This document shows, piece by piece, positions 18,219 through 54,447 of a stretch of 64,000 nucleotides of DNA; within the stretch, counting starts at the first letter, position 1; each line of letters opens with the position of its first letter. The notes beneath the pieces were generated by a model, which searched no databases, was not told where the DNA came from, and worked only from the letters and a program-made list of their open reading frames with translations. This stretch comes from a virus (Duplodnaviria; Heunggongvirae; Uroviricota; Caudoviricetes). The position numbers were made by a program, and so were the translations under genes. Where the stretch lies: positions 18,413-82,412 of IMG/VR virus record IMGVR_UViG_3300034102_002786. One strand, given 5' to 3'.

Positions 18219-20609
18219 ATGTCATTAATATTAAGAATTCCTAAAGGCTCTCCACTTACAGCTTCCGAAATGGATGCCAACTTTTCTTATCTTGAAAATT
18301 TGATAAATATTGGAACATCCGGTACTGGCGGTTCTGCTGGCTCAGGTGGCTCATCTGGTTCAAGCGGAAGTAGTGGTACAAGTGGGTCAAACGGAAGTAG
18401 TGGCTCAAGTGGCTCTAGCGGTACTAATGCAAGTGCAGGTTCATCTGGTTCATCTGGTAGTAGTGGTTTATCACAAAATGGTACTGATGGTTCAAGCGGT
18501 TCAAGCGGCTCATCGGGTAGTTCAGGAGAAAGTGGTAGTAGTGGTTCAAGCGGCTCAAGTGGTTCATCCGGTCAAAGTGGGACATCTGGTGTAAATGGAG
18601 AAAATGGTACATTCTTTGGAACTTCGGGAAGTTCTGGTTCATCTGGAGTGAATGGTGTACAAGGTTCACCTGGTTCTTCTGGTTCAAGCGGCTCAAGTGG
18701 AGAAAGTAGTTCAAGCGGTTCAAGCGGTTCAAGCGGTTCAAGCGGAATTTCGGGAGATTCTGGTACAAGTGGTGTAAATGGTACATCTGGTTCTTCTGGT
18801 AGTAGTGGATTACCTGGTTCATCAGGTTCTAGCGGCTCATCGGGTACAAATGGTTCACAAGGAAGTGATGGCTCAAGTGGGTCATCAGGTTCTAGCGGTG
18901 GTCCGGGATTGCCTGGTACTGATGGTTCAAGCGGAAGTAGTGGCTCAAGCGGTACAAGCGGCTCAAGCGGAAGTAGTGGGTCATCGGGTAGTAGCGGTAC
19001 TGATGGTGCTGGTACATCTGGCTCGAGCGGCTCAAGCGGTACAAGCGGAACTTCCGGTAATGGTTCGCCAGGAACTTCTGGCACAAGCGGTACATCTGGC
19101 ACAAGCGGCTCATCTGGTGAAAATGGTACAAGTGGCTCAAGCGGTAGTAGTGGTTCATCGGGTACAAGTTTACTTCCATTATCAGGCAGTACAAATAATG
19201 GTCTAATAACTTATTTACCGGCTGGAAGTGGAAGTGTTGAAACTAATCTTACATTTGATGCAGTAACAAATACTTTATCCGTTTATGGTAAAGCACATAT
19301 TAGTGAATTTGTAAGTGCATCTGGGGTTTATTTATCACAATCAGCAAATCCTGAAATTGTTTCTCCATCATCGTTAAGTTTGACAGCAGCAACTGTAGTA
19401 TTAATTTCATCATCATCACTTAGGTTGGCATCTTTTACAAACGCTCAAACCAATAGTTTAGTATTAGGTGAGGGACAGTTGATTTATAATTCAAGTGAAG
19501 CAAAAATTATGGGTTATACGGATTCTAAATGGAGACCGATAGCTTATGATGAAATAGTAACAGCTATTAATACATTTACAGGTTCAGCTAGAATTGAATT
19601 AAATAATATAGAATCTTACACTGCTTCATTAAAAGCAGTAGCTATTGTTTCATCATCAACTCAAATACAAAACTATGATGTATTTGCTTTAAACTCAAAT
19701 TTATATGAATCAACTGGTTCTATAAAAGGAGAAATTTCGGCAATAGAATTATATACTGCTTCATTAAAAGCAGTAGATATTGTATCTTCATCAACCCAAA
19801 TATCAAACTATTATAAATTTGCAGAAACCGCATCGGCAAACACTTTTTATGGTACTCAAACAATTAGTGGTTCATTTAACTTAACCGGTTCAATGATACA
19901 AAGTGGATTAAGCACACTAATTGGTAACACTATATTAAGTGGTAGTATTCAAATGAGTGGGTCAACCGTTCAAACTGGAGACAACACGCTAATTGGTAAT
20001 ACTGTATTAAGTGGTTCTGTTTTTGTAAGTGGTAGCACGCACTTCCAAAATTCAATAATGACCGTAACGGGTTCATCATACTTTACTGGTTCAATGTATG
20101 TTGATGGTGATTTTTACAAAAATAGACAGAAGCAGTTTAATTTCCTATCATTGGTAAATACGGGTTCGTTATTACTAACACAAAACCAATTGTATTCCGC
20201 ATCTTTTGTTAATGGAGTATCACCATTATATGTAAAAAGTGGTATGTATTTAAGTGGAAGCGCTGGCGCGAATACTTATACGAAAATAGTTTTTGAACAT
20301 ACTGGTATTTACAACTTCCAATATAGTATTCAAATGGATACTAACGATAATCAGATTGCAACCCTTCATACTTGGTTTGCAAAAAATGGAACTGATGTTG
20401 AGTATTCTAACTCCGTATTTGGTGTAGCTAATAACGGATATAGTATTGGTTCAATGAATTTAATATATACTATGGAATCTGGTAGTTATATGGAGTTACG
20501 ATATGCAACTTCGGATACTAATTTAGAATTAGCAAGTGTTAGTAGTTCATTGGTTCCTGTTAGACCTATAGCGCCAGCCATCATAGCAACTGTAACACAA
20601 GTAGCATAA
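18219..20609 (+). CDS. collagen-like repeat fibre protein (putative tail or virion fibre), with an N-terminal attachment-like domain, ~300 aa of G-S/T-S triplets and a C-terminal globular domain
   Basis: 796-aa ORF. The N-terminus SLILRIPKGSPLTASEMDANFSYLENL resembles conserved phage fibre N-termini. Residues ~30-310 are uninterrupted Gly-X-Y triplets in which X and Y are almost only Ser, Thr, Asn, Asp or Glu. Confidence 0.75.
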   Translation: MSLILRIPKGSPLTASEMDANFSYLENLINIGTSGTGGSAGSGGSSGSSGSSGTSGSNGSSGSSGSSGTNASAGSSGSSGSSGLSQNGTDGSSGSSGSSGSSGESGSSGSSGSSGSSGQSGTSGVNGENGTFFGTSGSSGSSGVNGVQGSPGSSGSSGSSGESSSSGSSGSSGSSGISGDSGTSGVNGTSGSSGSSGLPGSSGSSGSSGTNGSQGSDGSSGSSGSSGGPGLPGTDGSSGSSGSSGTSGSSGSSGSSGSSGTDGAGTSGSSGSSGTSGTSGNGSPGTSGTSGTSGTSGSSGENGTSGSSGSSGSSGTSLLPLSGSTNNGLITYLPAGSGSVETNLTFDAVTNTLSVYGKAHISEFVSASGVYLSQSANPEIVSPSSLSLTAATVVLISSSSLRLASFTNAQTNSLVLGEGQLIYNSSEAKIMGYTDSKWRPIAYDEIVTAINTFTGSARIELNNIESYTASLKAVAIVSSSTQIQNYDVFALNSNLYESTGSIKGEISAIELYTASLKAVDIVSSSTQISNYYKFAETASANTFYGTQTISGSFNLTGSMIQSGLSTLIGNTILSGSIQMSGSTVQTGDNTLIGNTVLSGSVFVSGSTHFQNSIMTVTGSSYFTGSMYVDGDFYKNRQKQFNFLSLVNTGSLLLTQNQLYSASFVNGVSPLYVKSGMYLSGSAGANTYTKIVFEHTGIYNFQYSIQMDTNDNQIATLHTWFAKNGTDVEYSNSVFGVANNGYSIGSMNLIYTMESGSYMELRYATSDTNLELASVSSSLVPVRPIAPAIIATVTQVA
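18300..19200 (+). repeat. coding low-complexity repeat (GGN-AGY-AGY)n encoding (Gly-Ser-Ser)n
   Basis: Repeated ggttcaagcggctcaagtgg-type units. The repeat creates spurious ORFs in all six frames of the track. Confidence 0.85.
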
Positions 20610-29105: not shown

Positions 29106-30311
29106 ATGGCAAAGTCTAATGTAGACAAAGTGAGTAAAGTAATCTTCAAAGTAGTGAAGGTAGGCTCACATTTCAAACTAGCAAATACTGCTGGTAAAAT
29201 TGTAGGTACTAACGGAATTAGTACTGGTACTCGTAAGAAAGCTTTCGAAGCTGGTAAAGCACTTCGTAAAGTAGTTGGTAGTGGTGGTAAGATTCAATAC
29301 CGCTTAACCGATATGGCTGAATTTGATAACTTAGTTGCTCCATTGAAAAGCAACGCCGAAGTTAATGTTGAGAAATTGGATAATCATAAAGAGATTACCG
29401 ATTTTATCCATAACGAATCGGTTAAACTTAAACCTGAAGGATTGGTTATTTCAGACCTTAAATGGAAATACCTTATTCGTTCAGCTGTGAGAGCTAAAAA
29501 TATTATGATGACTGGACCTGCTGGTTGTGGTAAGACATTAGCAGCTAAAGCATTAACTAAAGGTTTAAAGAGACCTGATTTCTATTTCAACTTAGGTGCT
29601 ACGCAAGATGCTAGAGCAACGTTGATTGGTAACACGCACTTTGATTCTAAGAAAGGTACTTTCTTCGCTGAATCCGCTTTCGTAAAAGCAATCACCACTC
29701 CAAACGCTGTTATCCTATTGGATGAGTTGAGTAGAGCACATCCTGATGCTTGGAATATTCTTATGACAGTGTTGGATTTGGGACAACGTTACCTTCGTTT
29801 GGATGAAGCTGTTGATTCACCAATTGTAAATGTGGCTGAAGGTGTTACCTTTATCGCTACGGCTAACATTGGTGGTGAATATACATCAACGCGTGTTCTT
29901 GACCGTGCTATCTTAGACCGTTTCACTACAATTGAAATGGATGTATTGAACGATACGCAGGAGTTTGACTTGTTAAAGTATATGTATCCAGCTGTTAATG
30001 ATGATGATTTGAAAGCAGTAGCTGAAATCGCTCACCATACTAGAGAAATAGCTAAAGGTGGTGATGGTAAATTATCAACTGGTGTATCAACTCGTGCTAG
30101 TGTAGAAACTGCTGGACTTATCTATGATGGATTCAGTTTGTTCGAAGCAGCTGAGATTAGTATGTTCCCCTTCTTCAGTAATGATGGTGGTGTGGATAGT
30201 GAACGTACCTATGTTAAGCAGTTGGTACAAAAGTATGTAAAGGATGAGAAAGCTGATGAGGCTTTATTCACCGAACCAACCGAAGATGATAGTGAAAAAA
30301 TTGTTTGGTAA
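29106..30311 (+). CDS. CobS-like AAA+ ATPase (MoxR/CbbQ/AAA_5 family)
   Basis: Walker A MMTGPAGCGKT and Walker B VILLDELSRAHPD...NILMTVLD. Confidence 0.75.
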   Translation: MAKSNVDKVSKVIFKVVKVGSHFKLANTAGKIVGTNGISTGTRKKAFEAGKALRKVVGSGGKIQYRLTDMAEFDNLVAPLKSNAEVNVEKLDNHKEITDFIHNESVKLKPEGLVISDLKWKYLIRSAVRAKNIMMTGPAGCGKTLAAKALTKGLKRPDFYFNLGATQDARATLIGNTHFDSKKGTFFAESAFVKAITTPNAVILLDELSRAHPDAWNILMTVLDLGQRYLRLDEAVDSPIVNVAEGVTFIATANIGGEYTSTRVLDRAILDRFTTIEMDVLNDTQEFDLLKYMYPAVNDDDLKAVAEIAHHTREIAKGGDGKLSTGVSTRASVETAGLIYDGFSLFEAAEISMFPFFSNDGGVDSERTYVKQLVQKYVKDEKADEALFTEPTEDDSEKIVW

Positions 30312-31549: not shown

Positions 31550-32473
31550 ATGGAATCAATGAGTGAAAGATTTGCACGTTTGGAAAGAGAACGTGACGAA
31601 GAACTTAAACAATATAAATTAGAACAACAATTAAAAATTAAAAAGATGACAAAAATTATTGGTGGTAGTGTTATAGGATTATTCCTAATGGTATTCCTTT
31701 TCAAATCTTGTGAAAGAATTGATGCAGGACATGTGGGTGTTAAAGTAAACCTTTATGGTGATAACAAAGGTGTAAGTGATGTGACTGAAGTAACTGGTAT
31801 GGTATTCTATAATCCAATTACGCATAGCATCTATGAGTTCCCAACGTTTATTCAACACAAAGAATATACAGGTGATAATTCATTCGTAGTAAATAGTAAA
31901 GATGGTAGTGAGTTCCATGTATCACCAATCATTAACTATTCAGTAAAGAGAGAGAAAGTTCCGGCAATCTTCGCTAAATATCGTAGAAGTTTGGACCAAA
32001 TAGAAGAAGGTTTTTTAAAGACAGCTGTATTTGATGCCTTCCGTTTGGCAACTAACGTTTATACTGCTGATGAATTAATTAGTAATAGACAGAAGTTTGA
32101 AATAGAAGTTCGTAGAATATTAGAAGGACAGTTATTAGCAGAAGGATTTGTAGTTAATCAATTCACATCTAACTTAGTATATCCCGAAACATTCAAAACA
32201 GCTATTGAAGCTAAGAATAACGCAGTACAATCGGCATTGATGGCTGAGAATAAAGTTAAGCAAGCAGAAGCTGAAGCTAAGATTAAAGTAGCAACTGCAG
32301 AAGGTAATGCACAGGCACTAATTACTTCCGCTAAAGCTGAAGCTGAAGCAAATAGGATGAAACAGCAAACATTGACACCGTTACTTATTCAATTGGAATA
32401 TGTACAAAAATGGGATGGTAAATTGCCGGTATATGGCGAAGTTCCACAATTGTTCAGAAACATCCAAAAATAA
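31550..32473 (+). CDS. SPFH/band-7 (prohibitin/HflKC-like) domain protein
   Basis: N-terminal TM helix, an SPFH-like core (HVGVKVNLYG...) and a C-terminal Ala/Glu-rich coiled coil. Confidence 0.55.
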   Translation: MESMSERFARLERERDEELKQYKLEQQLKIKKMTKIIGGSVIGLFLMVFLFKSCERIDAGHVGVKVNLYGDNKGVSDVTEVTGMVFYNPITHSIYEFPTFIQHKEYTGDNSFVVNSKDGSEFHVSPIINYSVKREKVPAIFAKYRRSLDQIEEGFLKTAVFDAFRLATNVYTADELISNRQKFEIEVRRILEGQLLAEGFVVNQFTSNLVYPETFKTAIEAKNNAVQSALMAENKVKQAEAEAKIKVATAEGNAQALITSAKAEAEANRMKQQTLTPLLIQLEYVQKWDGKLPVYGEVPQLFRNIQK

Positions 32474-32510: not shown

Positions 32511-32522
32511 CGTATATTTGTA
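32489..32522 (+). promoter_or_regulatory. Bacteroidetes-type promoter (-7 TATATTTG at 32513-32520)
   Basis: The -33 TTGG lies in the terminator stem, 20 nt upstream of TATATTTG. Confidence 0.5.
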
Positions 32523-35261: not shown

Positions 35262-35660
35262 ATGGCATACGGAGAAAAGGTCATTGACCATTATCAAAAC
35301 CCCCGTAATGTTGGTACGTTGGATAAGAGTAAACCAACGGTGGGGACTGGGTTAGTTGGGGCGCCCGAATGTGGTGATGTAATGAGGCTCCAAATCCAAA
35401 TCGAAGATGGTATCATAACGGATGCCAAATTCAAAACTTTCGGATGTGGCTCGGCAATCGCAGCCAGTTCCTTAGCAACTGAATGGTTAAAGGGAAAGAG
35501 TGTAGATGAGGCGGCTAAGTTGGATAATATGGATTTAGTTGAGGAATTATCTCTACCACCTGTAAAGATACATTGTTCGGTATTGGCGCAGGATGCAGTT
35601 CAAGCCGCTATCAATGATTACCGAACAAAAAACGGATTAGAACCAATTAAATTTGATTAA
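35262..35660 (+). CDS. iscU: Fe-S cluster assembly scaffold IscU/NifU-like
   Basis: Full-length match to IscU: NPRNVG, GAPECGDVMRLQI, FKTFGCGSAIASSS and LPPVKIHCSVLA. Confidence 0.9.
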   Translation: MAYGEKVIDHYQNPRNVGTLDKSKPTVGTGLVGAPECGDVMRLQIQIEDGIITDAKFKTFGCGSAIAASSLATEWLKGKSVDEAAKLDNMDLVEELSLPPVKIHCSVLAQDAVQAAINDYRTKNGLEPIKFD

Positions 35661-35970
35661 TATGAAAAAGTTATTGAACTGGTTAAGGAGTATATTCGGC
35701 CAAAAAGTAGGTGCTGAGTTACACATTTATTCTATTAAGTGGGAGAAACCTTTGGATGGAACGCAGATTAGGGCGGTTATTAATACGATGATAAATTATT
35801 TCCCACCTAATTGTAAACCGAGTAGTATAACCACAACATCATCATCTACATCTTTTAATTTTTATTCAACCTGCCTAAGTGGACAGCAATTAAAAGATAT
35901 TGGTGAAAAGGCTGTAAGTGGGGCTAAGGTTCAATCGGTTTGGTTAGATGGAACTCAAATTTTACCATAA
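35653..35970 (+). CDS. hypothetical protein
   Basis: 105-aa ORF. Confidence 0.45.
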   Translation: MINMKKLLNWLRSIFGQKVGAELHIYSIKWEKPLDGTQIRAVINTMINYFPPNCKPSSITTTSSSTSFNFYSTCLSGQQLKDIGEKAVSGAKVQSVWLDGTQILP

Positions 35971-36167
35971 TGGAAGATAAGATAGAAATAAACGATGGAC
36001 ACTATTTGGAGTTATTAGATAGATTACACGTTATAATGTGTAACTTAAATGACCATTGTTTGGAACACCCATTGGCTCAATCTGATGAAGAAATAAAATT
36101 CAAAATAGAATACGCATTAGGACAAGTCTGGGATGCGTATCAAATGGTTGGAAGTAAAACAAAATAA
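35970..36167 (+). CDS. hypothetical protein
   Basis: Start moved to the internal ATG after the upstream stop. Confidence 0.4.
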   Translation: MEDKIEINDGHYLELLDRLHVIMCNLNDHCLEHPLAQSDEEIKFKIEYALGQVWDAYQMVGSKTK

Positions 36168-36168
36168 T

Positions 36169-36348
36169 ATGAAAAAATTATTTAGAAGTACAACAGATAG
36201 TAGAATAGGTGGAGTGTGTGGTGGTATCGCCGAATATACAAATAGTGACCCAACAATTTGGAGATTACTTTTTTTGGCATTAATATGTGCTCCATTCCCT
36301 ATGATTTTTATGTACTGTTTGGCGTGGATTATTATACCTAAAAAATAA
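36169..36348 (+). CDS. PspC-domain membrane protein
   Basis: RSTTDSRIGGVCGGIAEYTNSDPTIWRLLF followed by a TM helix is the PspC domain signature. Start at the internal ATG. Confidence 0.7.
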   Translation: MKKLFRSTTDSRIGGVCGGIAEYTNSDPTIWRLLFLALICAPFPMIFMYCLAWIIIPKK

Positions 36349-36352
36349 AATT

Positions 36353-36622
36353 ATGAAAGAGTTTATTGCAAAGTATCAGAAAGCAATTGTAGGAACGGGA
36401 GCCGTATCGGTACTCCTTATATGTTTCTTACAACAAAAGGAATTAAGTAAGTTAAGAGCTGAAGTTAAAGTACAAACAGCAGCTGCTGACTCACTTCATA
36501 ATGAAAACTTCCCTTGCCAAATTGAGTTAGGTAGATACCAAATTGCGTATCAAATCCTATTGGAAAGAAATCCAAAAGCGGCCAAAGAGTATGGTGATAT
36601 AATATCTGAAGAAACTGAATAA
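36353..36622 (+). CDS. hypothetical membrane-anchored protein
   Basis: 89-aa ORF with an N-terminal TM helix. Confidence 0.45.
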
Positions 36623-36624
36623 TT

Positions 36625-36954
36625 ATGGTAACACTACAACCTAAAGCATTAGAACACATAATCCAATTAATGAAGGAAGGTGGTTTAACGTCTGATACTC
36701 ATAACTTACGAGTTGGTATCAAAGGTGGTGGATGTAGTGGGTTATCTTATACAATGGATTTCGATGATAAGATAGAACCTACTGATGAAGTGGTAGAGGC
36801 TGATGGATTGAAAGTAGTAATTGATAGAAAGAGTTTACTATATCTTTATGGTACTCAATTGACATATTCAGATGGATTAAATGGTAAAGGATTTCAATGG
36901 GAGAATCCAAACGCATCTCGAACTTGTGGATGTGGTGAATCGTTTTCACTATGA
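36625..36954 (+). CDS. iscA: Fe-S cluster insertion/carrier protein, IscA/ErpA/HesB family
   Basis: GGGCSGLSY and the C-terminal [14 protein letters not shown] are the HesB signatures. Confidence 0.9.
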
Positions 36955-37315
36955 TGAAGTTCTTTCTCAAATTAGCAACTATACTTTTGTTATTGGGAGT
37001 TATAATTTTTGTAATACCATTGGCTATATTTATTAATATAGTAATGCTATTGGATTCATATATTACCCAAATATATCGTTATTATAAAAGAAAAAGATAA
37101 TTATTAGTAAAAATTTTAATATGTCATTAACTAAGAAACAAAAGAAAGTAAGAAGGCGTAATCAGTTAGCAAAAAAGACCCGTAAAATGTTGTTTAAAAA
37201 GGGGTTATTTGGAAAAAAATGCTAATCTAATATAAGAATACTCAAAGACTTGCATGCCATGCGGGAGACACCCTTAAAATTGCTCTAAAAGCGTTTTAAG
37301 ACCCACTTTAACCCA

Positions 37316-37351
37316 TTGAAAATCAACTGATTATAACTCGTTGAAAATCAA
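37316..37351. promoter_or_regulatory. two operator-like sites (TTGAaaaTCAA at 37316-37326 and 37341-37351) in a larger inverted repeat
   Basis: aacCCATTGAAAATCAActgattataactcgTTGAAAATCAATGGGtt. Confidence 0.45.
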
Positions 37352-37359
37352 TGGGTTAT

Positions 37360-37400
37360 TTATTTGATTTATTCCAAAAAAATTCGTATATTTGTATATT
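37360..37400 (+). promoter_or_regulatory. Bacteroidetes-type promoter (-33 TTTG at 37363-37366, -7 TATATTTG at 37387-37394)
   Basis: 20-nt spacer; sits immediately downstream of the operator pair. Confidence 0.55.
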
Positions 37401-40173: not shown

Positions 40174-40545
40174 ATGAACACAATTAAACAATATGGATTA
40201 GCAATACTTTGCGTTATATTTGGAACTATTGCTTTCCTAAACTATGCCCGATTCAAAGGTAGAGAATTGGAGATAGAACAATTAAGTAGAGATAATGAAA
40301 ATCTAAGACAACATATAATTACCTTAGATGAAAAAATAACCTTATTGGATAGTTATCCATACGAACATTCAGAAATAAAAAAAGAAAACAATGACAGAGT
40401 TACTGATTTTCCTAAACATAATGATTTTGGAAATTGTACTAAGTATAGACAATGCGGCTGTACTTGCGGCGATGGTAAAGGAGTTACCAAAAGACCAGCA
40501 AAAAAAGGCGCTGACTTACGGGATAGCGGGAGCATACCTTTTTAG
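40174..40545 (+). CDS. hypothetical small membrane protein; its 3' part overlaps terC in another frame
   Basis: N-terminal TM helix plus coiled coil up to ~40390; the remainder is probably frame-overlap read-through. Confidence 0.25.
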   Translation: MNTIKQYGLAILCVIFGTIAFLNYARFKGRELEIEQLSRDNENLRQHIITLDEKITLLDSYPYEHSEIKKENNDRVTDFPKHNDFGNCTKYRQCGCTCGDGKGVTKRPAKKGADLRDSGSIPF

Positions 40546-41041
40546 AGGATTAGCTTTACTATTCGCATCCGTTCTTATCAAATTGGTATGGTTGAAAGTA
40601 GCAGGTGGATTGTATCTTATGTACTTAGCATATAAAGCCCTATCTTCAAAAGTTGAGCAGGGTGGTGAGAGTAAGATGACAATTAAGATACCATTTCTAT
40701 CAGCACTTTGGTCTACTATCGTAGCAATTGAGATGATGGATTTAGTATTCAGTATTGATAATGTATTTGCCGCTGTAGCATTCACACCTAACTTATGGTT
40801 GATATGTGGTGGGGTATTCATTGGTATCCTTGCTATGAGATTTGCAACAACAAAGTTTGTGAAAGTGTTAGAGAAAAATCCTATATTGGAGAGAGTAGCA
40901 TATTGGGTAATTGGAGCATTGGGATTGAAGTTAGTATCATCATATTGGTTGCATGATTTGAATACTGAAAGCATAGATGCAGTATTCTCAATCTTAACTT
41001 TATTAGCGTTTATTATACCTTTAATTTTGAAGAAAAAATAA
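40391..41041 (+). CDS. TerC-family integral membrane protein
   Basis: LEIVLSIDNAAVLA and a second SIDNVFAAVA repeat are the TerC signature; multiple TM helices. Confidence 0.7.
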   Translation: MTELLIFLNIMILEIVLSIDNAAVLAAMVKELPKDQQKKALTYGIAGAYLFRGLALLFASVLIKLVWLKVAGGLYLMYLAYKALSSKVEQGGESKMTIKIPFLSALWSTIVAIEMMDLVFSIDNVFAAVAFTPNLWLICGGVFIGILAMRFATTKFVKVLEKNPILERVAYWVIGALGLKLVSSYWLHDLNTESIDAVFSILTLLAFIIPLILKKK

Positions 41042-44569: not shown

Positions 44570-44845
44570 ATGATGGAAACAATCGGATTTATTGGTAGCA
44601 TACTTTTAGCAGTATGTGGTATTCCAGAAGTGGTTCGCACTATTAAAGATAACAAATGTCATTTAGGATGGAACTTTTTGTTACTTTGGTTTGGTGGCGA
44701 ACTTTTCATGCTTACATATATTATACCAATGAAAGACCTTCCATTATTATTAAACTATGTATTCAATACGGCATTAGTAGGAATAATGCTATTTTATAAA
44801 ATCAAAAACACAAAATATGTTACCATTAAAAGAAGCAATCGCTGA
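44570..44845 (+). CDS. membrane protein
   Basis: 91-aa ORF with 2-3 TM helices. Confidence 0.45.
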   Translation: MMETIGFIGSILLAVCGIPEVVRTIKDNKCHLGWNFLLLWFGGELFMLTYIIPMKDLPLLLNYVFNTALVGIMLFYKIKNTKYVTIKRSNR

Positions 44846-45362
44846 GAAGCATTCGTTAGCAGAAAAAATGACATTCAATCAAAGAATGTTAAACGGAGAA
44901 TTGAGTAAAGAAGAATATATCGCATATCTTTGCCAACAATTAGGAATATTCGATGCGATAGAAAGAGGTAGAACACTACCACACCCATCCCTTAACAGAG
45001 TTGATAATATCTTAAAAGATATTCAAGAACTGATGGAAATTGGCGATGATGCTGGGTTGGAAATTGACCTTTTAGATTCAACTGAAAAATATTTTTTATA
45101 TATTAAATCATTATCGGATGAAGAAATACTTCCGCACATTTATCTTAACTACTTAGCCCTAATGTTTGGTGGGCAGATGATGAAATCAAAAGTTCCTGGT
45201 AATGGTAAGATGTATGAGTTCGATGGTGATATGAGGGAAGTTGCTGGAAGTATTAGAGCAATTCAAAAAGATGAATGGGCAGACGAAGCAAACAAAGCAT
45301 TAGATTACAATATAGCTATTTTTGATGAACTACAACGAATATCTGAATCAGCTGGCGAATAA
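44817..45362 (+). CDS. heme oxygenase
   Basis: LKEAIAEKHSLAEKMTFNQRMLNGELSKEEYIAYLCQQLGIFDAIE follows the heme-oxygenase proximal-helix pattern (K.H...E....L.G.....Y...L.Q.Y.I..A.E). Confidence 0.7.
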   Translation: MLPLKEAIAEKHSLAEKMTFNQRMLNGELSKEEYIAYLCQQLGIFDAIERGRTLPHPSLNRVDNILKDIQELMEIGDDAGLEIDLLDSTEKYFLYIKSLSDEEILPHIYLNYLALMFGGQMMKSKVPGNGKMYEFDGDMREVAGSIRAIQKDEWADEANKALDYNIAIFDELQRISESAGE

Positions 45363-45954
45363 GTTTCAACAAATGGTGTTAGCTGCACCTAAAGTTGGGA
45401 CTGTATTTACCGAAGACTTTGGATGGGTTAATCATCGTTACGAATCTTCCACATTTCGTTTGGCCCATATCGAAAGGTATTGGGATAAGAATATAGAAGT
45501 ACTTCACTTTACTACCTTTCCACACAAATGGAGTCCAGAACCTATATTTGGGTTTGATGTAATTTGTACTGAAAACAAAGTAACAGGATGTTATATGGAT
45601 TTGAGTCCGGGTCTGAAGGATTACCCATTTGATAATGGTATTGATTTTAAGGATAGGAAACCATTACCTGAATGGGCTACTGTATTTTCTGATAAGTTTA
45701 TAATGTTGAAGCCGGAAAGTAATGAAGAATTTATTCGTTTTTGTGATTGGGTGTTGGACAGATATGATTGGTATCTTAATTCTATCTTATGGATGGAAAA
45801 GAAAGTAGAAGATATTAATAGTGTAATAGAGAAGCAGAATATTTATTGTCAAATACAGGCAACAAACCCTCGAACATTTTCAGCATTAAAAGCTAAGATT
45901 GGTGAGGAAAAAGCTCGTTATTTTATGGAAAACATACTATTCCCAAAAATATGA
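45322..45954 (+). CDS. ferredoxin-dependent bilin reductase (PcyA/PebS/PcyX-like)
   Basis: LAHIERYWDKNIEVLHFTTFPHKWSPEPIFGFDVICTENKVTGCYMDLSP matches the FDBR core (AHVERY..K.DVLH.V.FP....LPIFG.D.V......S.AI.DLSP). Overlaps the heme-oxygenase gene by 41 nt; alternative start ATG at 45373. Confidence 0.7.
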   Translation: MMNYNEYLNQLANKFQQMVLAAPKVGTVFTEDFGWVNHRYESSTFRLAHIERYWDKNIEVLHFTTFPHKWSPEPIFGFDVICTENKVTGCYMDLSPGLKDYPFDNGIDFKDRKPLPEWATVFSDKFIMLKPESNEEFIRFCDWVLDRYDWYLNSILWMEKKVEDINSVIEKQNIYCQIQATNPRTFSALKAKIGEEKARYFMENILFPKI

Positions 45955-46343: not shown

Positions 46344-46799
46344 ATGTTCGTACCAAATCATTTGCATCTATTGGTAAAGGGATACTTAAAATCCCCACCA
46401 CAAACAGAAAAAGTGTTAAACATATGGTTTACACAATTGGTTGACAACGTAGGAATGAAAGTTGTTGCAGGTCCTACATCGGTTTATGTTAATGAACCGG
46501 GCAACGAAGGGATAACGGGAACGGTAACATTAGCAACATCGCATGCATCTATTCACGTTTGGGATAACGAAAATCCGGCTATGTTTCAATTTGATATTTA
46601 TAGTTGTTCGGATTTTAAACCAAAAGATGTACTAAACCATATAGATGATTGGTTTGGATTAACTGAAGCACATTGGCAGTTTATAGATAGAAACGGTAAA
46701 GATTTTAAAGTGATTGATTCGGGTCATTTTAAAAAGAGTGTTGTAAGAAAAATTACCGATGTATTTAAAACGAAAAAAGTAGTTGATGAACTTGGATGA
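46344..46799 (+). CDS. speD: S-adenosylmethionine decarboxylase proenzyme (SpeH/class 1 AdoMetDC)
   Basis: GPTSVYVNEPGNEGITGTVTLATSHASIHVWDNE carries the pyruvoyl-forming Ser region typical of small AdoMetDC. Confidence 0.7.
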   Translation: MFVPNHLHLLVKGYLKSPPQTEKVLNIWFTQLVDNVGMKVVAGPTSVYVNEPGNEGITGTVTLATSHASIHVWDNENPAMFQFDIYSCSDFKPKDVLNHIDDWFGLTEAHWQFIDRNGKDFKVIDSGHFKKSVVRKITDVFKTKKVVDELG

Positions 46800-47737: not shown

Positions 47738-47971
47738 ATGGAAATCAACGAAAACATATTAAAACTTAAACTTAAAGAATCCGAATTAAAGGAAGAATTA
47801 GCAAGTGCTGAAGCTCACATACCTGTAAATAATATGGGTAAATGGGCTCGTCAAACTAAAATTGACCGTATTTCGGAAAGACTAAAGAAGGTGCAAGAAA
47901 AAATCCATTTTCACGATTCTATATATTTATCTAATGAAATATACAATGAATGGAAAAAGGATGTAAAGTAG
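47738..47971 (+). CDS. hypothetical coiled-coil protein
   Basis: 77-aa ORF. Confidence 0.4.
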   Translation: MEINENILKLKLKESELKEELASAEAHIPVNNMGKWARQTKIDRISERLKKVQEKIHFHDSIYLSNEIYNEWKKDVK

Positions 47972-48636
47972 TACGTTTGGATGAAGCTTCTTTAGGTAGA
48001 GTTCTCCAACACATTCAGGGCAAAAAGAGTGTGAAAAATTGGGGTATGCTTACCGCATATAGATATTCTAATACTCCAAACCAAAATAAAAAACTTAATA
48101 AAGAATTAGAAGCTGAATTAAGGCAGATGGGGCATGGATTCTTTAAAGTAGAAGGTCATTGGGTTGAGTGCCAGGATGGTAACCTATCATACGAAGATTG
48201 TCCGAAGAACTTACTAAAAGATGCTATCGAAGAATCACTTTTCGTTCCAAATATTTCAGCAAAAGATATTCACAACTTAGGTAAAAAATACGGACAGGAT
48301 GCGGTTATCTTTGGTGGTGAACAAACTAAAGGAAACGCAACTCTTATATTCAAAGATGGTAAGGTAGAAAATATTGGTAAGTTTTCTCCTGATAAAATAC
48401 AACAAGCTTATTCAAAACTAAAAGGCGGAAAAACTTTTGTATTTAAGCCAGAAGAACCTAAAGTTTCTGATGATGAAACAAAGTTAATGCATTTATTACC
48501 AAAAGATATTTTAGACAAAACTATTAAAAATCCAGCAACAGGAAATATGATTAAAGTTAAATCAGCTTTAGCATACGATGAGAAACACCCTGTATTTAAG
48601 GCAGCTCAAACATTTGTTGCACAATCTAAAAAATAA
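47950..48636 (+). CDS. hypothetical protein
   Basis: 228-aa ORF. Confidence 0.5.
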   Translation: MEKGCKVVRLDEASLGRVLQHIQGKKSVKNWGMLTAYRYSNTPNQNKKLNKELEAELRQMGHGFFKVEGHWVECQDGNLSYEDCPKNLLKDAIEESLFVPNISAKDIHNLGKKYGQDAVIFGGEQTKGNATLIFKDGKVENIGKFSPDKIQQAYSKLKGGKTFVFKPEEPKVSDDETKLMHLLPKDILDKTIKNPATGNMIKVKSALAYDEKHPVFKAAQTFVAQSKK

Positions 48637-48806: not shown

Positions 48807-48878
48807 TGTGGGGTAGAGCAGAGGTAGCTCGCAAGGCTCATAACCTTGAGGCCGTTGGTTCGAATCCTTCCCCCGCAA
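48807..48878 (+). tRNA. tRNA-Met-like (anticodon CAT), copy 1; the T-stem has two T-T mismatches
   Basis: Acceptor TGTGGGG/CCCCGCA, D-stem GAGC/GCTC, anticodon stem CAAGG/CCTTG with loop CTCATAA, T-loop TTCGAAT. The acceptor is identical to the tRNA at 52002. Confidence 0.55.
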
Positions 48879-48887
48879 CAAAAAAGA

Positions 48888-48921
48888 TTTGGTAGTTTGA
48901 AAAAATTATCGTATCTTTACA
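48888..48921 (+). promoter_or_regulatory. tandem promoter copy P2
   Basis: aaaaagaTTTGgtagtttgaaaaaattatcgTATCTTTAcaaagtt. Confidence 0.55.
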
Positions 48922-49040
48922 AAGTTAAGGTTGAAGCCATCAACTAATAAAACCGATTGAGTGACTCGTTAAACATTAGTTTCGTTAGAGTGAAAAGAAA
49001 CTACAAAGCCGGATACTTTAACTAACTAATTAAAAAAAGA

Positions 49041-49074
49041 TTTGGTAGTTTGAAAAAATTATCGTATCTTTACT
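49041..49074 (+). promoter_or_regulatory. tandem promoter copy P3
   Basis: aaaaagaTTTGgtagtttgaaaaaattatcgTATCTTTActaagatt. Confidence 0.55.
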
Positions 49075-49140
49075 AAGATTCAAAAATAAAGTAGTTGATT
49101 GGTTCGCCAGAAAACAAAATTGAGAATCTTTAAAAAAAGT

Positions 49141-49174
49141 TTTGGAAAATTGAAAAAGATTTCGTATCTTTACT
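49141..49174 (+). promoter_or_regulatory. tandem promoter copy P4
   Basis: TTTGgaaaattgaaaaagatttcgTATCTTTActctgttc. Confidence 0.5.
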
Positions 49175-50368
49175 CTGTTCTTAAAACAAAAGTTCTTTAA
49201 CATATTGAAGATACTACACATAGTAACCTTGTGTTACATAGTGTACGATGGCCGCCTATGGTCATTAAATAAACTACGAAAGTAGGATAAAGTGAATCAT
49301 TTGGTTAAATGATTTGCGGTTTGTAATCCGTTTAGGGTTATGAGCTTGAGTAGGCAAGTGAGATATTACTTGGGCTTTGTATGTGAGGGTAACACTGTAG
49401 CAGAAGAGTTTGGGTAACTGGGGGTATGTAGAACCTTCGGTTGAGTTCGGAAGAACAATAAGAATAACTCATAGAATTATTGTAAGACATAGAAAGCTAA
49501 TCCCTTTTTACTATTGCGTGATTCAATACCAAAGTGGTCTTGATAATCAAGCTATCCGAAAGGACGTAAGATAAGACTGTGTACGCGTGGTGGCGTTACT
49601 ATCCTTTAATGTGGGACACCAATCCCTATTAATGAAGATGACTTGAAGTATGGCGTTGAGATAACGCATTGGGTAGTTTAGTATTCTCTCGTTCAAAAGA
49701 TGGGGGAGCTGGTGATGGACCGCTACCTGAATCAATCTACAAACCAAAACTTTATATTTTCAATTTAGGTTTGAAAAACTATAATTAAACATAAAGCATA
49801 AGTGTCCATCAGTTGTGACCGAAAGGTGCATACATAGTTGGGAGTTGTTCCCAGCCATAAACGCCCGCAAGGTGGTTATGATTTTTACGAAAAGCTTATA
49901 GACCCGCAAGGTTGAATCAGTTCGGCAGGATTGAATAAGGGGAGTAGTAAGAGAGTAAGTTACAACTTTAAGAGTGGTTATACTTTACTAACCTGCATTG
50001 ACTGGTACATCTCAAAAGGGTGTGGAAACGAAAGGAATCAAAATAATCTTTCTAAAGCTAGTTATCCCAACGTGTATTCTCAACGTTTTTACTTTCTCAA
50101 TGGTTGTATATTGGTTCGATTCCAATAGAGAGAGCAAATTCATCCTGTAAGATGAATTATCGTGGTCTTTCTTTTACATAATGTTCACCTATTGAGAATA
50201 AAGAGTTATGTAGACCTAAAAGAACAAAACTAATGTAGACAGTATAGGCTGGTTTTTGTAAGTTTGACTGTTAATCCCTTATCAAATAGGGCTAAACGAA
50301 AATGGTTGACACGATAGATACCTGTGGTTAGGCAAGCGCTCGGAAAGTTCCCACCTTACAAAAAAACT

Positions 50369-50440
50369 TTCCATTTATGCGGTGTAAGTGTTACGGTAGC
50401 ACATTTCACATTCCAGTGAAAAGGAGAGGTTCAATTCCTT
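50369..50440 (+). ncRNA. tRNA-like element (pseudo-tRNA) with a 6-nt anticodon loop
   Basis: Acceptor TGCGGTG/CACCGCT (6 of 7 bp), T-arm AGAGG-TTCAATT-CCTTT, anticodon stem TTCAC/GTGAA with loop ATTCCA. Confidence 0.2.
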
Positions 50441-50505
50441 TCACCGCTCTACTAACAACTGAAAAGTTGTTCGTTTCATATCTTAATTTTTATTACAACT
50501 TAGAT

Positions 50506-50530
50506 GGGGGTGCTTCGGCATCCCCTATTT
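50506..50530 (+). terminator. rho-independent terminator with a UUCG tetraloop
   Basis: GGGGGTGC-TTCG-GCATCCCC is an 8-bp stem followed by TATTT. Confidence 0.55.
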
Positions 50531-50776
50531 AAGCCTGATGAAACTAACAACAATTCGGAAAAAATTATTTATATATACTTATTAATATAACAAAGTGATG
50601 AAAACTTTAACACTACATACAAATTGTTCGCAACCTACATTGAGAAATGAGTGGGCAGGCATTCGTATGTTTAGTACGATTAGTAATCCGGCAAACTTAG
50701 GCAAGGTGGATTATATTTGTACACAGTTAGAGGAAGCATCAGGTTGGTAATAGATTATACTTAAAACAACATAGAA

Positions 50777-50816
50777 AGACCTCTAACTGAATCAAATCGG
50801 TTAGAGGTTTTTTCGT
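50777..50816 (+). terminator. rho-independent terminator
   Basis: AGACCTCTAAC-(12-nt loop)-GTTAGAGGTTT followed by TTTTT; ends 6 nt before tRNA-Asn. Confidence 0.6.
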
Positions 50817-50821
50817 TTTAA

Positions 50822-50893
50822 GCTCCTTTGGCGCAGCGGTAGCGCAGCAGACTGTTAATCTGTTGGTCCTTGGTTCGAATCCAAGAGGGAGCG
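50822..50893 (+). tRNA. tRNA-Asn (GTT)
   Basis: Acceptor GCTCCTT/AGGGAGC, D GCGC/GCGC, anticodon loop CTGTTAA, T-arm CTTGG-TTCGAAT-CCAAG. Confidence 0.85.
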
Positions 50894-50926
50894 CAGTATA
50901 TGTTCTTTGACATATTGGGATAAGTT

Positions 50927-51001
50927 GGAAGTTTAGCTCAGCTGGTTTAGAGCATCACGTTTACACCGTGAGGGTCATAGGTTCGAATCCTGTAACTTCC
51001 A
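50927..51001 (+). tRNA. tRNA-Val (TAC)
   Basis: Acceptor GGAAGTT/AACTTCC, D GCTC/GAGC, anticodon arm TCACG-TTTACAC-CGTGA, T-loop TTCGAAT. Confidence 0.85.
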
Positions 51002-51106
51002 CAACATGTTCCATACACATTCCTACAATCTCTCAGTTGAAAGCTGTTGTAGGATTGAGTGAGTAGCACGATAGGGCTATCAAATGTGAGTTATATGGAA
51101 CGCCAT

Positions 51107-51188
51107 TGGGGTATCGCATAGTGGCAATTGCGGCTGACTGTAAATCAGCTCTCATTTGAGTTCGGCGGTTCGAGTCCGTCTACCCCAA
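51107..51188 (+). tRNA. tRNA-Tyr (GTA), class II with a long variable arm
   Basis: Acceptor TGGGGTA/TACCCCA, anticodon arm GCTGA-CTGTAAA-TCAGC, 14-nt variable arm, T-arm GGCGG-TTCGAGT-CCGTC. Confidence 0.8.
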
Positions 51189-51192
51189 CACC

Positions 51193-51265
51193 GGTGATGA
51201 AGCTAACTAGGTAGAAGCGAAAGACTGAAAATCTTTAGGAAGTGGTTCGATACCACTCATTACCA
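51193..51265 (+). tRNA. tRNA-Phe (GAA)
   Basis: Acceptor GGTGATG/CATTACC, anticodon arm AAAGA-CTGAAAA-TCTTT, T-arm AGTGG-TTCGATA-CCACT. Confidence 0.8.
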
Positions 51266-51287
51266 CTTAACAATTAAAAAAACAATT

Positions 51288-51497
51288 ATGGCAGATTTTA
51301 ATCATGGAGTTGGTACATTAATAAAAGAGTTGGTGACACCAAAAGGAAAAATTGAAATGGGTAGTAAAGGAATAGTAACTGCGTATCTACCAGAAGATGG
51401 TAAGTTCGCAGTAGATTTTGGAAATGGACAATGGATAACATTTGATAAAATATCATTGGACGAATATTGTAAAATAGAATTAGAAGATAACAATTAA
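51288..51497 (+). CDS. hypothetical protein embedded in the tRNA array
   Basis: 69-aa ORF between tRNA-Phe and tRNA-Lys. Confidence 0.4.
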   Translation: MADFNHGVGTLIKELVTPKGKIEMGSKGIVTAYLPEDGKFAVDFGNGQWITFDKISLDEYCKIELEDNN

Positions 51498-51537
51498 AAA
51501 CAAATACTATGGAAAGTGACAAGTATGACAAAAGTCA

Positions 51538-51611
51538 GACCTCTTAGCTCAGTTGGTTAGAGCACTATACTTTTAATATAGGAGTCAATGGTTCGAATCC
51601 ATTAGGGGTCA
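51538..51611 (+). tRNA. tRNA-Lys (TTT)
   Basis: Acceptor GACCTCT/AGGGGTC, D GCTC/GAGC, anticodon arm CTATA-CTTTTAA-TATAG, T-arm AATGG-TTCGAAT-CCATT. Confidence 0.85.
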
Positions 51612-51686
51612 CAAAAAGTTCCGAACTTAATATTGAGTTAAAATAATGATGTACACATTATACGATAGGATGGAAACCTATCACAT

Positions 51687-51760
51687 TGGAGTATAGCTCA
51701 GTTGGTTAGAGCGCTAATCTGATACGTTAGATGCCGCAGGTTCGAATCCCGCTACTCCAA
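51687..51760 (+). tRNA. tRNA-Ile (GAT)
   Basis: Acceptor TGGAGTA/TACTCCA, D GCTC/GAGC, anticodon arm CTAAT-CTGATAC-GTTAG, T-loop TTCGAAT (one A-C mismatch in the T-stem). Confidence 0.75.
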
Positions 51761-51765
51761 CACAC

Positions 51766-51836
51766 ATGGGTATAGTGAAATGGTATCATGCCGGTCTCCA
51801 AAACCGTTGTTGTGGGTTCGAATCCTACTACCCGTG
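51766..51836 (+). tRNA. tRNA-Trp (CCA)
   Basis: Acceptor ATGGGTA/TACCCGT, D GTGA/TCAT, anticodon loop CTCCAAA, T-arm GTGGG-TTCGAAT-CCTAC. Confidence 0.7.
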
Positions 51837-51841
51837 CAATT

Positions 51842-51914
51842 GGCTCTTTAGTGAAATGGATTATCACACAACGCTACGGACGTTGGGTTAAAGGTTCGAA
51901 TCCTTTAGGGGCTA
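51842..51914 (+). tRNA. tRNA-Arg (ACG)
   Basis: Acceptor GGCTCTT/AGGGGCT (three G-U pairs), D GTGA/TCAC, anticodon arm CAACG-CTACGGA-CGTTG, T-arm AAAGG-TTCGAAT-CCTTT. Confidence 0.7.
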
Positions 51915-51922
51915 CATAATAA

Positions 51923-51993
51923 GGCGAGTTGTTAGAGTGGTGATATGAAGTTCTGCAAAAACTTTTACACAGGTTCGAATCCTGTACTCGCCT
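51923..51993 (+). tRNA. tRNA-Cys (GCA)
   Basis: Acceptor GGCGAGT/ACTCGCC, anticodon arm AAGTT-CTGCAAA-AACTT, T-arm ACAGG-TTCGAAT-CCTGT; the D-arm pairs weakly. Confidence 0.75.
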
Positions 51994-52001
51994 CTTGATA
52001 T

Positions 52002-52073
52002 TGTGGGGAGATTAGGTAATCCGTTTGGTCTCATAAGCCAGATATTCAGGTTCAATTCCTGGCCCCGCAACCA
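52002..52073 (+). tRNA. tRNA-Met-like (CAT), copy 2, with a reduced D-arm and an encoded 3' CCA
   Basis: Acceptor TGTGGGG/CCCCGCA, anticodon loop CTCATAA, T-arm TCAGG-TTCAATT-CCTGG, ends A-CCA. Candidate initiator or Ile-lysidine tRNA. Confidence 0.55.
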
Positions 52074-52076
52074 AAT

Positions 52077-52151
52077 GGTGTTTGAAGCATTAAGGTGATG
52101 CGCTAGTTTGTGGAGCTAGATAAGACGGTTCGATACCGTCCTTACACCCCA
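52077..52151 (+). tRNA. tRNA-His (GTG) with the extra 5' G(-1) and an encoded CCA
   Basis: G-1 plus acceptor GTGTTTG/CTTACAC (two T-T mismatches), D GCAT/ATGC, anticodon arm CTAGT-TTGTGGA-GCTAG, T-arm GACGG-TTCGATA-CCGTC, discriminator C. Confidence 0.65.
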
Positions 52152-52153
52152 AC

Positions 52154-52243
52154 GGAGAGTTGCCTGAGTGGCCGAAAGGGCCGGTTTGCTAAACCGTTGT
52201 ACGGAGTTAATCTGTACCGAGAGTTCGAATCTCTCACTCTCCG
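52154..52243 (+). tRNA. tRNA-Ser (GCT), class II
   Basis: Acceptor GGAGAGT/ACTCTCC, anticodon loop TTGCTAA, long variable arm TGTACGGAGTTAATCTGTACC, T-arm GAGAG-TTCGAAT-CTCTC. Confidence 0.8.
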
Positions 52244-52252
52244 CATAAATAA

Positions 52253-52286
52253 TTTGGATAATTGAAAAATTATTCGTATATTTGTA
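52253..52286 (+). promoter_or_regulatory. Bacteroidetes-type promoter inside the array (-33 TTTG at 52253-52256, -7 TATATTTG at 52277-52284)
   Basis: aaTTTGgataattgaaaaattattcgTATATTTGtataac. Confidence 0.55.
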
Positions 52287-52306
52287 TAACTTAAAACATA
52301 AAAGAG

Positions 52307-52735
52307 ATGAACGTAAAACAGGCTTTAAAAGCAAAGAACAAACTTACCACTCAAATCAAAGCGTTATATGAAATCGCTAAGAATCATAACTCAATTGAGG
52401 AAGGTAACCTGCGTAGATATTCCGTAAATGGAGTATTGAATGAAGCAGAAGAATTGACCAAAGAGTTGGTTGATTTAAAAACTAAAATCCATCAGGCTAA
52501 CCAACCTGTATATGGTAAGATTTTCCTAATGGCAGAGCTAAAAGGAAAGGTAAAGCAACTTAAAGGAATGAGTTGTGAAGAAGGTAAAGTAACCGAAAGA
52601 TTTGGTTCAATCCAATCGGTGAAAGAAGTAGAAATTAATATCGCTCAAAAAGACCAAATGATAAAAGATTTGGAAAATCAAATTGAGGGATTGCAGGATG
52701 AGTTGGATGTGTATAACGCAACTACAACCATCTAA
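52307..52735 (+). CDS. hypothetical coiled-coil protein embedded in the tRNA array
   Basis: 142-aa ORF downstream of the internal promoter. Confidence 0.5.
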   Translation: MNVKQALKAKNKLTTQIKALYEIAKNHNSIEEGNLRRYSVNGVLNEAEELTKELVDLKTKIHQANQPVYGKIFLMAELKGKVKQLKGMSCEEGKVTERFGSIQSVKEVEINIAQKDQMIKDLENQIEGLQDELDVYNATTTI

Positions 52736-53019: not shown

Positions 53020-53113
53020 CAATAGCATACATCACAATCAGTCAAGCCGTATTTAGCTGTTAGTGTATGTTAGATAAGAGAAAGAAACGGCTGGGACATT
53101 CTCTTATCAAAAC

Positions 53114-54446: not shown

Positions 54447-54447
54447 A

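Follow-up and report, generated by a model that had tools for sequence, protein, structure and literature searches.

A 64,000-nucleotide (nt) stretch of DNA from a tailed virus (positions 18,413 to 82,412 of the IMG/VR record IMGVR_UViG_3300034102_002786; hereafter, the window) encodes two proteins of iron-sulfur (Fe-S) cluster assembly, an IscU scaffold and an A-type carrier of the IscA/HesB family, whose genes delimit positions 35262 to 36954. Judging from their sequences, both are functional and long-resident viral genes that are under strong purifying selection. The pair is probably a viral auxiliary metabolic module, in which the extra scaffold and carrier would operate with the cysteine desulfurase (IscS) of the host to raise Fe-S cluster assembly and delivery during infection.

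The scaffold and carrier pair in phages and bacteria

Residues 3 to 124 of the 132 in IscU match the NCBIfam equivalog model TIGR01999 at 208.9 bits (cutoff, 192.4), and the match to the Pfam family NifU_N reaches 172 bits (E = 7e-51). All of the cluster ligands (C37, D39, C62, H104, and C105, with C37, D39, C63, H105, and C106 of Escherichia coli as the reference) are present and are invariant across 82 viral and 80 cellular copies. Residues 98 to 102 form LPPVK, the recognition motif of the HscA chaperone, which is likewise invariant in the viral copies. The nearest solved structures are those of bacterial and mitochondrial IscU proteins, among them 1q48 (E = 1.8e-58) and human ISCU (E of about 5e-56).

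The carrier exceeds the cutoffs of the family-level models, scoring 115.4 bits against TIGR00049 (cutoff, 58.8) and 66.5 bits against Pfam Fe-S_biosyn (cutoff, 26.3), and its three cysteines (C37 and those of C101-G-C103) do not vary among 70 viral and 79 cellular copies. Its solved relatives include 1nwb, 2apn, and 1r94, each with an E value of about 1e-22. It remains under the cutoff of every equivalog model, whether for IscA (TIGR02011, 96.8 versus 150.6 bits), ErpA (NF010147, 101.9 versus 117), or SufA (TIGR01997, 90.3 versus 136.2). The protein is thus best named an A-type carrier in the generic sense, its orthology to IscA being unproven, and only the synteny with iscU in Bacteroidota justifies the name IscA. 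A first-pass annotation of the window had described both proteins as full-length and canonical, which the profile scores and the complete ligand sets bear out, with both genes on the + strand and at the same coordinates; its designation of an IscA/HesB carrier holds for the A-type family but not for any of the equivalogs within it.

Pairwise comparisons with viral relatives, spanning synonymous divergences (dS) from 0.4 up to saturation, yield ratios of nonsynonymous to synonymous substitution (dN/dS) of 0.03 to 0.07 for IscU and 0.09 to 0.2 for the carrier. Fixed substitutions that separate viral from cellular sequences number zero in both alignments. The exact IscU protein recurs, with the same gene neighbors, in 38 blocks of public assemblies (examples of the samples are JGI 3300042361, 3300042383, and 3300044970 and ENA ERZ27272090), and at least 586 IMG/VR contigs encode a relative with 79 to 96% identity. 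The pair lies among viral genes, with tRNAs and a GOLLD RNA downstream and replication genes upstream, and the same context is found in many independent contigs. That the genes are phage encoded, as had been proposed, is upheld by this tailed-phage setting (27 tRNA genes, a 4-nt median gap between genes, and a T4-like clamp loader upstream) and by purifying selection within the viral clade.

Gene order was compared in the window plus the best 80 viral loci by IscU similarity and in the best 80 cellular IscU matches listed, with one genome per GTDB species. The carrier is downstream of IscU in 71 of the 80 viral loci; of the nine exceptions, six are contigs that end within 1.3 kb of IscU. IscS is encoded neither in the window nor in any of the 80 viral loci, versus 79 of the 80 cellular loci, in which it precedes IscU; the carrier directly follows IscU in 79 of the cellular loci, and the operon of Ferruginibacter paludis, for example, reads iscS-iscU-iscA. 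A search of the window for a second scaffold or a second carrier returned neither. The first-pass annotation had overlooked that this virus is without a cysteine desulfurase, as well as the earlier publication of viral IscU and A-type carriers as auxiliary metabolic genes.

The listed cellular IscU proteins are 77 to 84% identical to that of the window and are nearly all from Bacteroidota, including Ferruginibacter, Sediminibacterium, and other Chitinophagaceae, along with Sphingobacteriales and Flavobacteriales; among them are isolates in which the gene sits on contigs of hundreds of kilobases or more. The IscU of Acinetobacter is 71% identical. The viral loci have G+C contents of 26 to 36%. 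In neighbor-joining trees, 77 of the 82 viral IscU sequences fall into a single clade made up of viral sequences alone, and the viral carriers fall into two such clades.

A variable slot between the two genes

Four small open reading frames (ORFs) part IscU from the carrier: orf102, orf65, a PspC-domain gene, and orf89 (Table 1). Neither orf102 nor orf65 has a match in Pfam or PHROGs or a homologue among the 80 related viral loci. The PspC-domain protein does not reach the equivalogs for full-length PspC (TIGR02978, 45 versus 104 bits; NF007973, 24 versus 136 bits), indicating a stand-alone domain of 59 to 71 residues. Its dN/dS is about 0.33, and among the 80 viral loci its presence in the gap is confined to the three closest relatives of the window (L008 to L010), at 56% identity. 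There was also no Pfam or PHROG match to orf89, which has a dN/dS of about 0.3 and relatives in 23 of the 80 viral loci; in about 15 of these the gene is in the gap between IscU and the carrier, at times as a pair of paralogues.

The two genes are adjacent (gap of 32 nt or less) in 27 of the 72 viral loci that have both, and otherwise the gap measures 195 to 5,315 nt. Its cargo is varied and includes ferredoxins, glycosyltransferases, members of the orf89 family, and bS21 ribosomal protein genes, the last in L011, L012, and L061 (positions 10730 to 10918 of L061). Because PspC occupies the gap in no genome other than the window and its three closest relatives and other gaps are so varied, the bracketing of PspC is incidental, and the conserved unit, as read from these loci, is IscU, a variable slot, and the carrier. 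The first-pass annotation had presented the pair as enclosing a PspC-domain gene; such an ORF does lie between them, but it is one of four, and a functional link is unsupported by an arrangement that is found in four genomes.

The commonest insert is an FdxA-like 4Fe-4S dicluster ferredoxin of 102 to 114 residues, which adjoins IscU in 28 of the 80 viral loci versus none of the 80 cellular loci. The association also holds in reverse: among 78 viral ferredoxin loci, IscU is present in 60 (directly upstream in 55) and the carrier in 54 (directly downstream in 46). The variable slot therefore appears often to hold an Fe-S client, namely, this ferredoxin. The window itself has no ferredoxin, and its real ORFs are without CxxCxxCxxxC, radical-SAM, or thioredoxin/glutaredoxin motifs over the entire 64 kb. 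No ferredoxin was found elsewhere in the contigs of its closest relatives among the best 80 of 96 matches, and its absence from them is likely.

Directly after the carrier lies orf49, which possibly encodes a small hydrophobic protein, and a hydrophobic 58-residue ORF is similarly placed in L061 (positions 11553 to 11729); public gene predictions call neither. The window has three genes of membrane-homeostasis type within 10 kb, all on the + strand, which encode an SPFH/Band 7 protein (31550 to 32473), PspC (36133 to 36348), and a YkoY-family TerC protein (40391 to 41041). The last belongs to a putative metal transporter family and scores 208 bits versus a cutoff of 138.5.

Source phage, host, and other genes of the window

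The source genome is that of a large tailed phage without a close cultured relative. The window has a G+C content of about 32%, carries essentially all of its genes on one strand, and is tightly packed, with a median intergenic gap of 4 nt and 17 start/stop overlaps. Its tRNA array, GOLLD RNA, and bS21 gene are listed in Table 1; one odd tRNA call at positions 50378 to 50449 has an anticodon of two bases ("tc"), and Rfam did not recover it. Contigs of the identical strain encode a dUTPase, a clamp loader, and a PD-(D/E)XK nuclease just upstream of the window. The T4-like clamp loader matched 2,769 phage records, all at 44% identity or less, its relatives being huge phages, PA5oct-like jumbo phages, and cyanomyophages. 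Related IMG/VR contigs reach 274 to 298 kb, and IMGVR_UViG_3300034104_003795 (274 kb) is an example of a complete relative. No capsid or terminase gene was found in the window or within 10 kb on either side in the IscU-encoding contigs examined.

An origin in a giant eukaryotic virus (nucleocytoplasmic large DNA virus) was considered, given the GT29, GT11, SET, and collagen domains encoded in the window, the missing Shine-Dalgarno signal, and one relative labelled GVMAG. It is ruled out by the 4-nt median gap, the 17 overlaps, the one-strand gene arrangement, and the bacterial-type tRNA array, as well as by the T4-like clamp loader, the Bacteroidota-type promoter motifs, and the bS21 gene.

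The host is probably a member of the Bacteroidota, to judge from several features of the sequence, and the habitat appears to be freshwater lakes. GGAG-type motifs lie upstream of 3 of 79 genes, when about 7 are expected by chance, which points to a host without Shine-Dalgarno initiation. The consensus of the -7 promoter element in Bacteroidota is TAnnTTTG. The element GTATATTTGTA fits this consensus and has 15 matches at one mismatch or fewer versus 4.0 expected, a number that none of 100 shuffles attained. Seven copies are exact, all of them on the + (coding) strand (positions 593, 21966, 32512, 37386, 42957, 48661, and 52276); several are just upstream of start codons, and terminator-like hairpins precede two of the seven. 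No terminator-like site was found within positions 35262 to 36954, and the arrangement of these elements suggests that one transcription unit of about 4.6 kb (32534 to about 37100) holds the module. A sigma-70 promoter scan of the window returned 14 sites versus 16.5 expected and was uninformative.

A cyanophage or pelagiphage host was also considered, on account of the heme oxygenase and bilin reductase genes described below and of the match to Phage C48C1, a member of the Kyanoviridae. It is disfavored by the best cellular matches, which are from Bacteroidota, and, for cyanophages, by an AAA_5 protein that is unlike typical cyanophage CobS records.

Table 1. Features of the module and its surroundings, with coordinates in the window unless a related locus is named
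Feature	Position	Strand	Evidence or comment
bS21 ribosomal protein gene	17880-18152	+	Pfam 43.3 bits; TIGR00030 38.3 versus cutoff 28.95
Promoter-like element GTATATTTGTA	32512-32522	+	Exact copy after hairpin and T-run; putative unit start
IscU Fe-S cluster assembly scaffold, 132 aa	35262-35660	+	TIGR01999, NifU_N, phrog_8429
orf102	35662-35970	+	Gene call in identical-strain contigs; lineage-specific insert
orf65	35970-36167	+	Gene call in identical-strain contigs; lineage-specific insert
PspC-domain small membrane protein, 71 aa (59 aa from ATG 36169)	36133-36348	+	Pfam PF04024, 80.7 bits versus 25
orf89	36353-36622	+	Hydrophobic N-terminal stretch (read from sequence); member of small viral family
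A-type Fe-S carrier (IscA/HesB family), 109 aa	36625-36954	+	TIGR00049, Fe-S_biosyn, phrog_17776
orf49, possible small hydrophobic protein	36951-37100	+	ORF list; ATGA overlap with carrier stop codon; candidate coding ORF
Terminator-like hairpin and T-run	37333-37359	+	First one downstream of module
Promoter-like element GTATATTTGTA	37386-37396	+	14 nt before HAD gene start
tRNA array, 27 genes	48807-56231	+	Nearly all amino acids; includes three tRNA-Met(CAT)
GOLLD RNA, full-length	49669-50086	+	Rfam RF02032, 295.9 bits versus gathering score 150, E = 1e-83; within tRNA array
Ferredoxin between IscU and carrier (examples)	L058:10395-10739; L061:10422-10730		

The first-pass annotation had placed the pair in a wider program of iron and cofactor metabolism, together with a 2-oxoglutarate (2OG)-Fe(II) oxygenase, a heme oxygenase, a ferredoxin-dependent bilin reductase (FDBR), and CobS/T-like genes. 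The heme oxygenase (44817 to 45362) and the FDBR (45322 to 45954) are confirmed, and the 2OG-Fe(II) oxygenase (55128 to 55589) passes by a narrow margin (28.7 bits versus a cutoff of 27). The CobS/T-like label is not supported: the protein encoded at positions 29106 to 30311 (+) is an AAA_5/CbbQ_C (MoxR-type) ATPase that matches no cobaltochelatase model. Its only domains are AAA_5, AAA_2, and CbbQ_C, its best NCBIfam match is to GvpN at 52.7 versus 266.8 bits, and its best phage relatives are in Microcystis phage Mel-JY01 (56%) and a 484-kb huge phage, all 29 of the phage records being 56% identical or less. The 758-residue ORF upstream of it has no Pfam or NCBIfam match.

It is only in the lineage of the window (5 of 80 loci) that heme oxygenase, FDBR, and TerC genes are found at 10 kb or less from IscU. 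2OG oxygenases use mononuclear iron and not Fe-S clusters. Enzymes of the heme oxygenase and FDBR classes use reduced ferredoxin, and an indirect link to Fe-S supply is therefore conceivable. On the gene content of the window, a reprogramming of host iron and cofactor metabolism is plausible, and the case for a coordinated suite of such genes is weak. The heme oxygenase and bilin reductase pair (44817 to 45954, +), for which the nearest FDBR model is PcyA, at a score below its cutoff, occurs in a phage whose likely host is a non-photosynthetic member of the Bacteroidota.

Much of the remaining window concerns glycans. A biosynthetic cluster at positions 1 to 16176 and 56704 to 58597 (+) encodes a UDP-GlcNAc 2-epimerase, several NAD epimerases/dehydratases, a DegT aminotransferase, three FkbM methyltransferases, a GT2 glycosyltransferase, GT11 fucosyltransferase-like and GT29 sialyltransferase-like proteins, and a CMP-sugar cytidylyltransferase fused to an RraA-like domain. 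Adjoining the bS21 gene, a 796-residue protein (18219 to 20609, +) has collagen triple-helix repeats (111 bits) and a C terminus of about 120 residues that resembles small freshwater phage proteins; it may be a tail fiber. The window also encodes an S-adenosylmethionine (SAM) decarboxylase, a SAM lyase family protein, and a SET-domain protein (46344 to 46799, 47950 to 48636, and 58598 to 59020, respectively; all +), together with a GTP cyclohydrolase I.

Proposed role, alternatives, and relation to known systems

We propose that an ancestor of a large group of low-G+C freshwater tailed phages captured the iscU-iscA part of a Bacteroidota iscS-iscU-iscA operon, which its descendants then kept. 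During infection, the phage would make additional IscU scaffold and A-type carrier from a module that is presumably co-transcribed. Sulfur would be provided by host IscS, the phage having no cysteine desulfurase, and the LPPVK motif suggests a dependence on host HscA/HscB-type chaperones, where the host has such chaperones. The likely effect would be greater building of Fe-S clusters and greater delivery to apo-proteins while host gene expression is shut down, and the candidate clients would be host enzymes needed by the phage and phage Fe-S proteins such as the ferredoxin of the relatives. The four intervening ORFs, PspC included, would be lineage-specific cargo in the variable slot and would stand outside this mechanism. 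Cluster assembly and transfer are favored over action as a decoy because all ligands, LPPVK, and a co-conserved carrier have been kept and because a ferredoxin is embedded in the module of relatives.

Several points weigh against this proposal. The 64-kb window has no recognizable Fe-S client, be it a ferredoxin, a radical-SAM protein, or a CxxCxxCxxxC motif in a real ORF. Where IscS is limiting, flux would not necessarily rise with an extra scaffold that comes without an extra desulfurase. The Isc pathway of E. coli is reported to be protective against phage lambda (PMC3296357), and more IscU is therefore not automatically of benefit to a phage. On the comparative side, the assignment of a host is indirect, the GTDB scan matched 8-mer peptides of the query exactly, so that the listed matches are biased to close relatives, and the neighbor-joining trees are without support values and were built from sets picked by similarity to the query.

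It is improbable, in our estimation, that the viral IscU serves to divert sulfur flux, competing for host IscS and drawing persulfide from TusA-type tRNA thiolation, thiamine, and molybdenum cofactor such that host or phage translation is altered, a gain in clusters not being the aim. A virus that has IscU but never IscS must engage the IscS of its host. In model bacteria, tRNA-Lys(UUU), tRNA-Glu(UUC), and tRNA-Gln(UUG) carry 2-thiouridine, and the window encodes all of these tRNAs. IscU and TusA are reported to occupy competing sites on E. coli IscS (PMC11302665), and the 2-thiouridine tRNA pathway is reported to be of importance in lambda infection (PMC3296357). A pure competitor, however, would need no ligands, no LPPVK, and no downstream carrier, all of which are invariant or co-conserved under strong purifying selection, and the direction reported for E. 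coli, with Isc protective and thiolation pro-phage, is opposite to the interest of the phage. The ferredoxin inside the module of many relatives points instead to cluster delivery and argues, at least in those relatives, for phage-encoded clients. It bears in the same way on the unlikely case that the pair mainly rebuilds or protects the clusters of host respiratory and central enzymes under oxidative stress or iron scarcity in sunlit oligotrophic lakes, sustaining energy over a long jumbo-phage latent period without supplying phage-encoded proteins. Consistent with such stress repair are the missing phage client in the window, the neighbors with membrane and metal-homeostasis functions (SPFH, PspC, and YkoY-type TerC), a peroxiredoxin near the NifU-like gene in the related Phage C48C1, and the service of A-type carriers and IscU in cluster delivery under aerobic or stress conditions in model bacteria (PMC11327457). 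Stress repair differs from our proposal in its client set only, and sequence cannot separate the two.

A more specific version of the proposed role, to which we would give a modest chance, is that the viral iscU-iscA cassette forms the core of a virus-specific "make-your-own ferredoxin" kit. The cassette would mature a phage ferredoxin that powers phage enzymes of the heme oxygenase and bilin reductase type in non-photosynthetic Bacteroidota, and in the window the ferredoxin slot would have been overwritten by PspC/orf89 membrane cargo, with ferredoxin relocated or supplied by the host. The reading in which IscU, PspC, and the carrier act as one functional unit, for example in membrane-tethered Fe-S assembly, is largely refuted by the comparative data and deserves very little credence: only 4 of 81 genomes have PspC between the pair, the pair is adjacent in 27 of 72 loci while other gaps hold unrelated cargo, and cellular iscU-iscA is never accompanied by PspC in the 80 cellular loci. 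These observations outweigh the tight packing of the six ORFs without an internal terminator-like site and the retention of PspC at 56% identity (dN/dS of about 0.33) in the three closest relatives. The chance that the pair is host DNA, acquired through an assembly chimera, a mis-binned contig, or a recent passenger, is negligible. In its favor, most "phage"-labelled database matches to IscU and IscA come from host DNA that was filed under phage names, and the record of "Acinetobacter phage MD-2021a" is an iscRSUA-hscBA-fdx chromosome segment. For the window, an artefact is refuted for practical purposes by the recurrence of the same neighborhood in independent assemblies from several sources, with phage genes on both sides, by the viral G+C content of 26 to 36%, the lack of IscS, and the distinct viral clades, and by saturated synonymous sites combined with low dN/dS. 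Evident chromosome fragments filed as phage, which inflate the phage matches to IscU and IscA, include CAKLQH020000011.1, CAKLQF020000009.1, and several "Listeria," "Staphylococcus," and "Salmonella" phage records.

Fe-S clusters are required by many enzymes of respiration and of DNA and cofactor synthesis. A cassette that gives scaffold and carrier but relies on the host desulfurase marks the steps that may limit Fe-S supply in the infected cell. An iscU-iscA pair of Bacteroidota type is, in addition, a host-linked marker for abundant uncultured large lake phages.

The concept of viral Fe-S assembly genes is already published, and the window adds a new, well-documented example of it rather than a phenomenon that is itself new. 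Marine environmental viral genomes of T4-like phages encode IscU (6 genomes) and an A-type carrier (14 genomes) (Nishimura et al. 2017, mSphere, PMC5332604), a report that also cites earlier findings of sufA and iscU in the Pacific Ocean Virome; marine viral Fe-S genes have been read in the same way as here (PMC5332604, PMC7678222), and similar genes have been noted in Baikal, OM43, and HMO-2011-type phages. Both families are already represented in PHROGs (phrog_8429 and phrog_17776). The marine genomes resemble the present case in having the same two families in large T4-like tailed phages, with no desulfurase reported and a reading of Fe-S supply or recycling. They differ in that marine IscU clusters with gammaproteobacterial (SAR86) homologues, whereas the nearest cellular relatives of the window among the listed matches are Bacteroidota, and in that the pair here belongs to a group of at least 586 contigs, apparently from freshwater, in which the host order iscU-iscA is kept as a cassette.

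Among individual phages, Phage C48C1 (OQ984149; Kyanoviridae), a 156-kb myophage, encodes a 70% identical NifU-like protein of phrog_8429 that is annotated as an auxiliary metabolic gene; unlike the window, it has no adjacent A-type carrier, and its protein falls outside the main viral clade in the neighbor-joining tree. Freshwater Bacteroidetes-infecting phages with bS21 have genomes of 293 to 331 kb, G+C contents of 31 to 33.7%, and 5 to 25 tRNAs (Chen et al. 2022, ISME Commun, PMC9723584). The source phage is like them in profile, sharing their size class, a G+C content of about 32%, many tRNAs, bS21, and a predicted Bacteroidetes host. Their copy of bS21 is encoded on the reverse strand in the structural module, whereas that of the window is on the + strand beside the collagen-repeat gene, and the report on them makes no mention of Fe-S genes.

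The closest counterparts are the cellular operon and the cassettes of related phages. With the ISC operon of Bacteroidota, the pair shares gene order, ligands, and LPPVK, at 77 to 84% identity for IscU and 51 to 61% for the carrier. The virus differs in having no iscS, its copies form clades of their own, and the viral gap takes in foreign genes, whereas the cellular gaps of 31 to 743 nt are without relatives of the window genes tested. The IscU-ferredoxin-IscA cassettes of related IMG/VR contigs have the same IscU and carrier clades, the same order, and the same phage group, and they differ in that the window and its closest relatives have orf102, orf65, PspC, and orf89 in place of ferredoxin. 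To what was known of these systems, the present comparison adds the Bacteroidota origin and the likely host of the pair, the host operon order without iscS across a very large group of freshwater phages, and a variable slot that, in relatives, holds a virus-specific arrangement of IscU, ferredoxin, and carrier.

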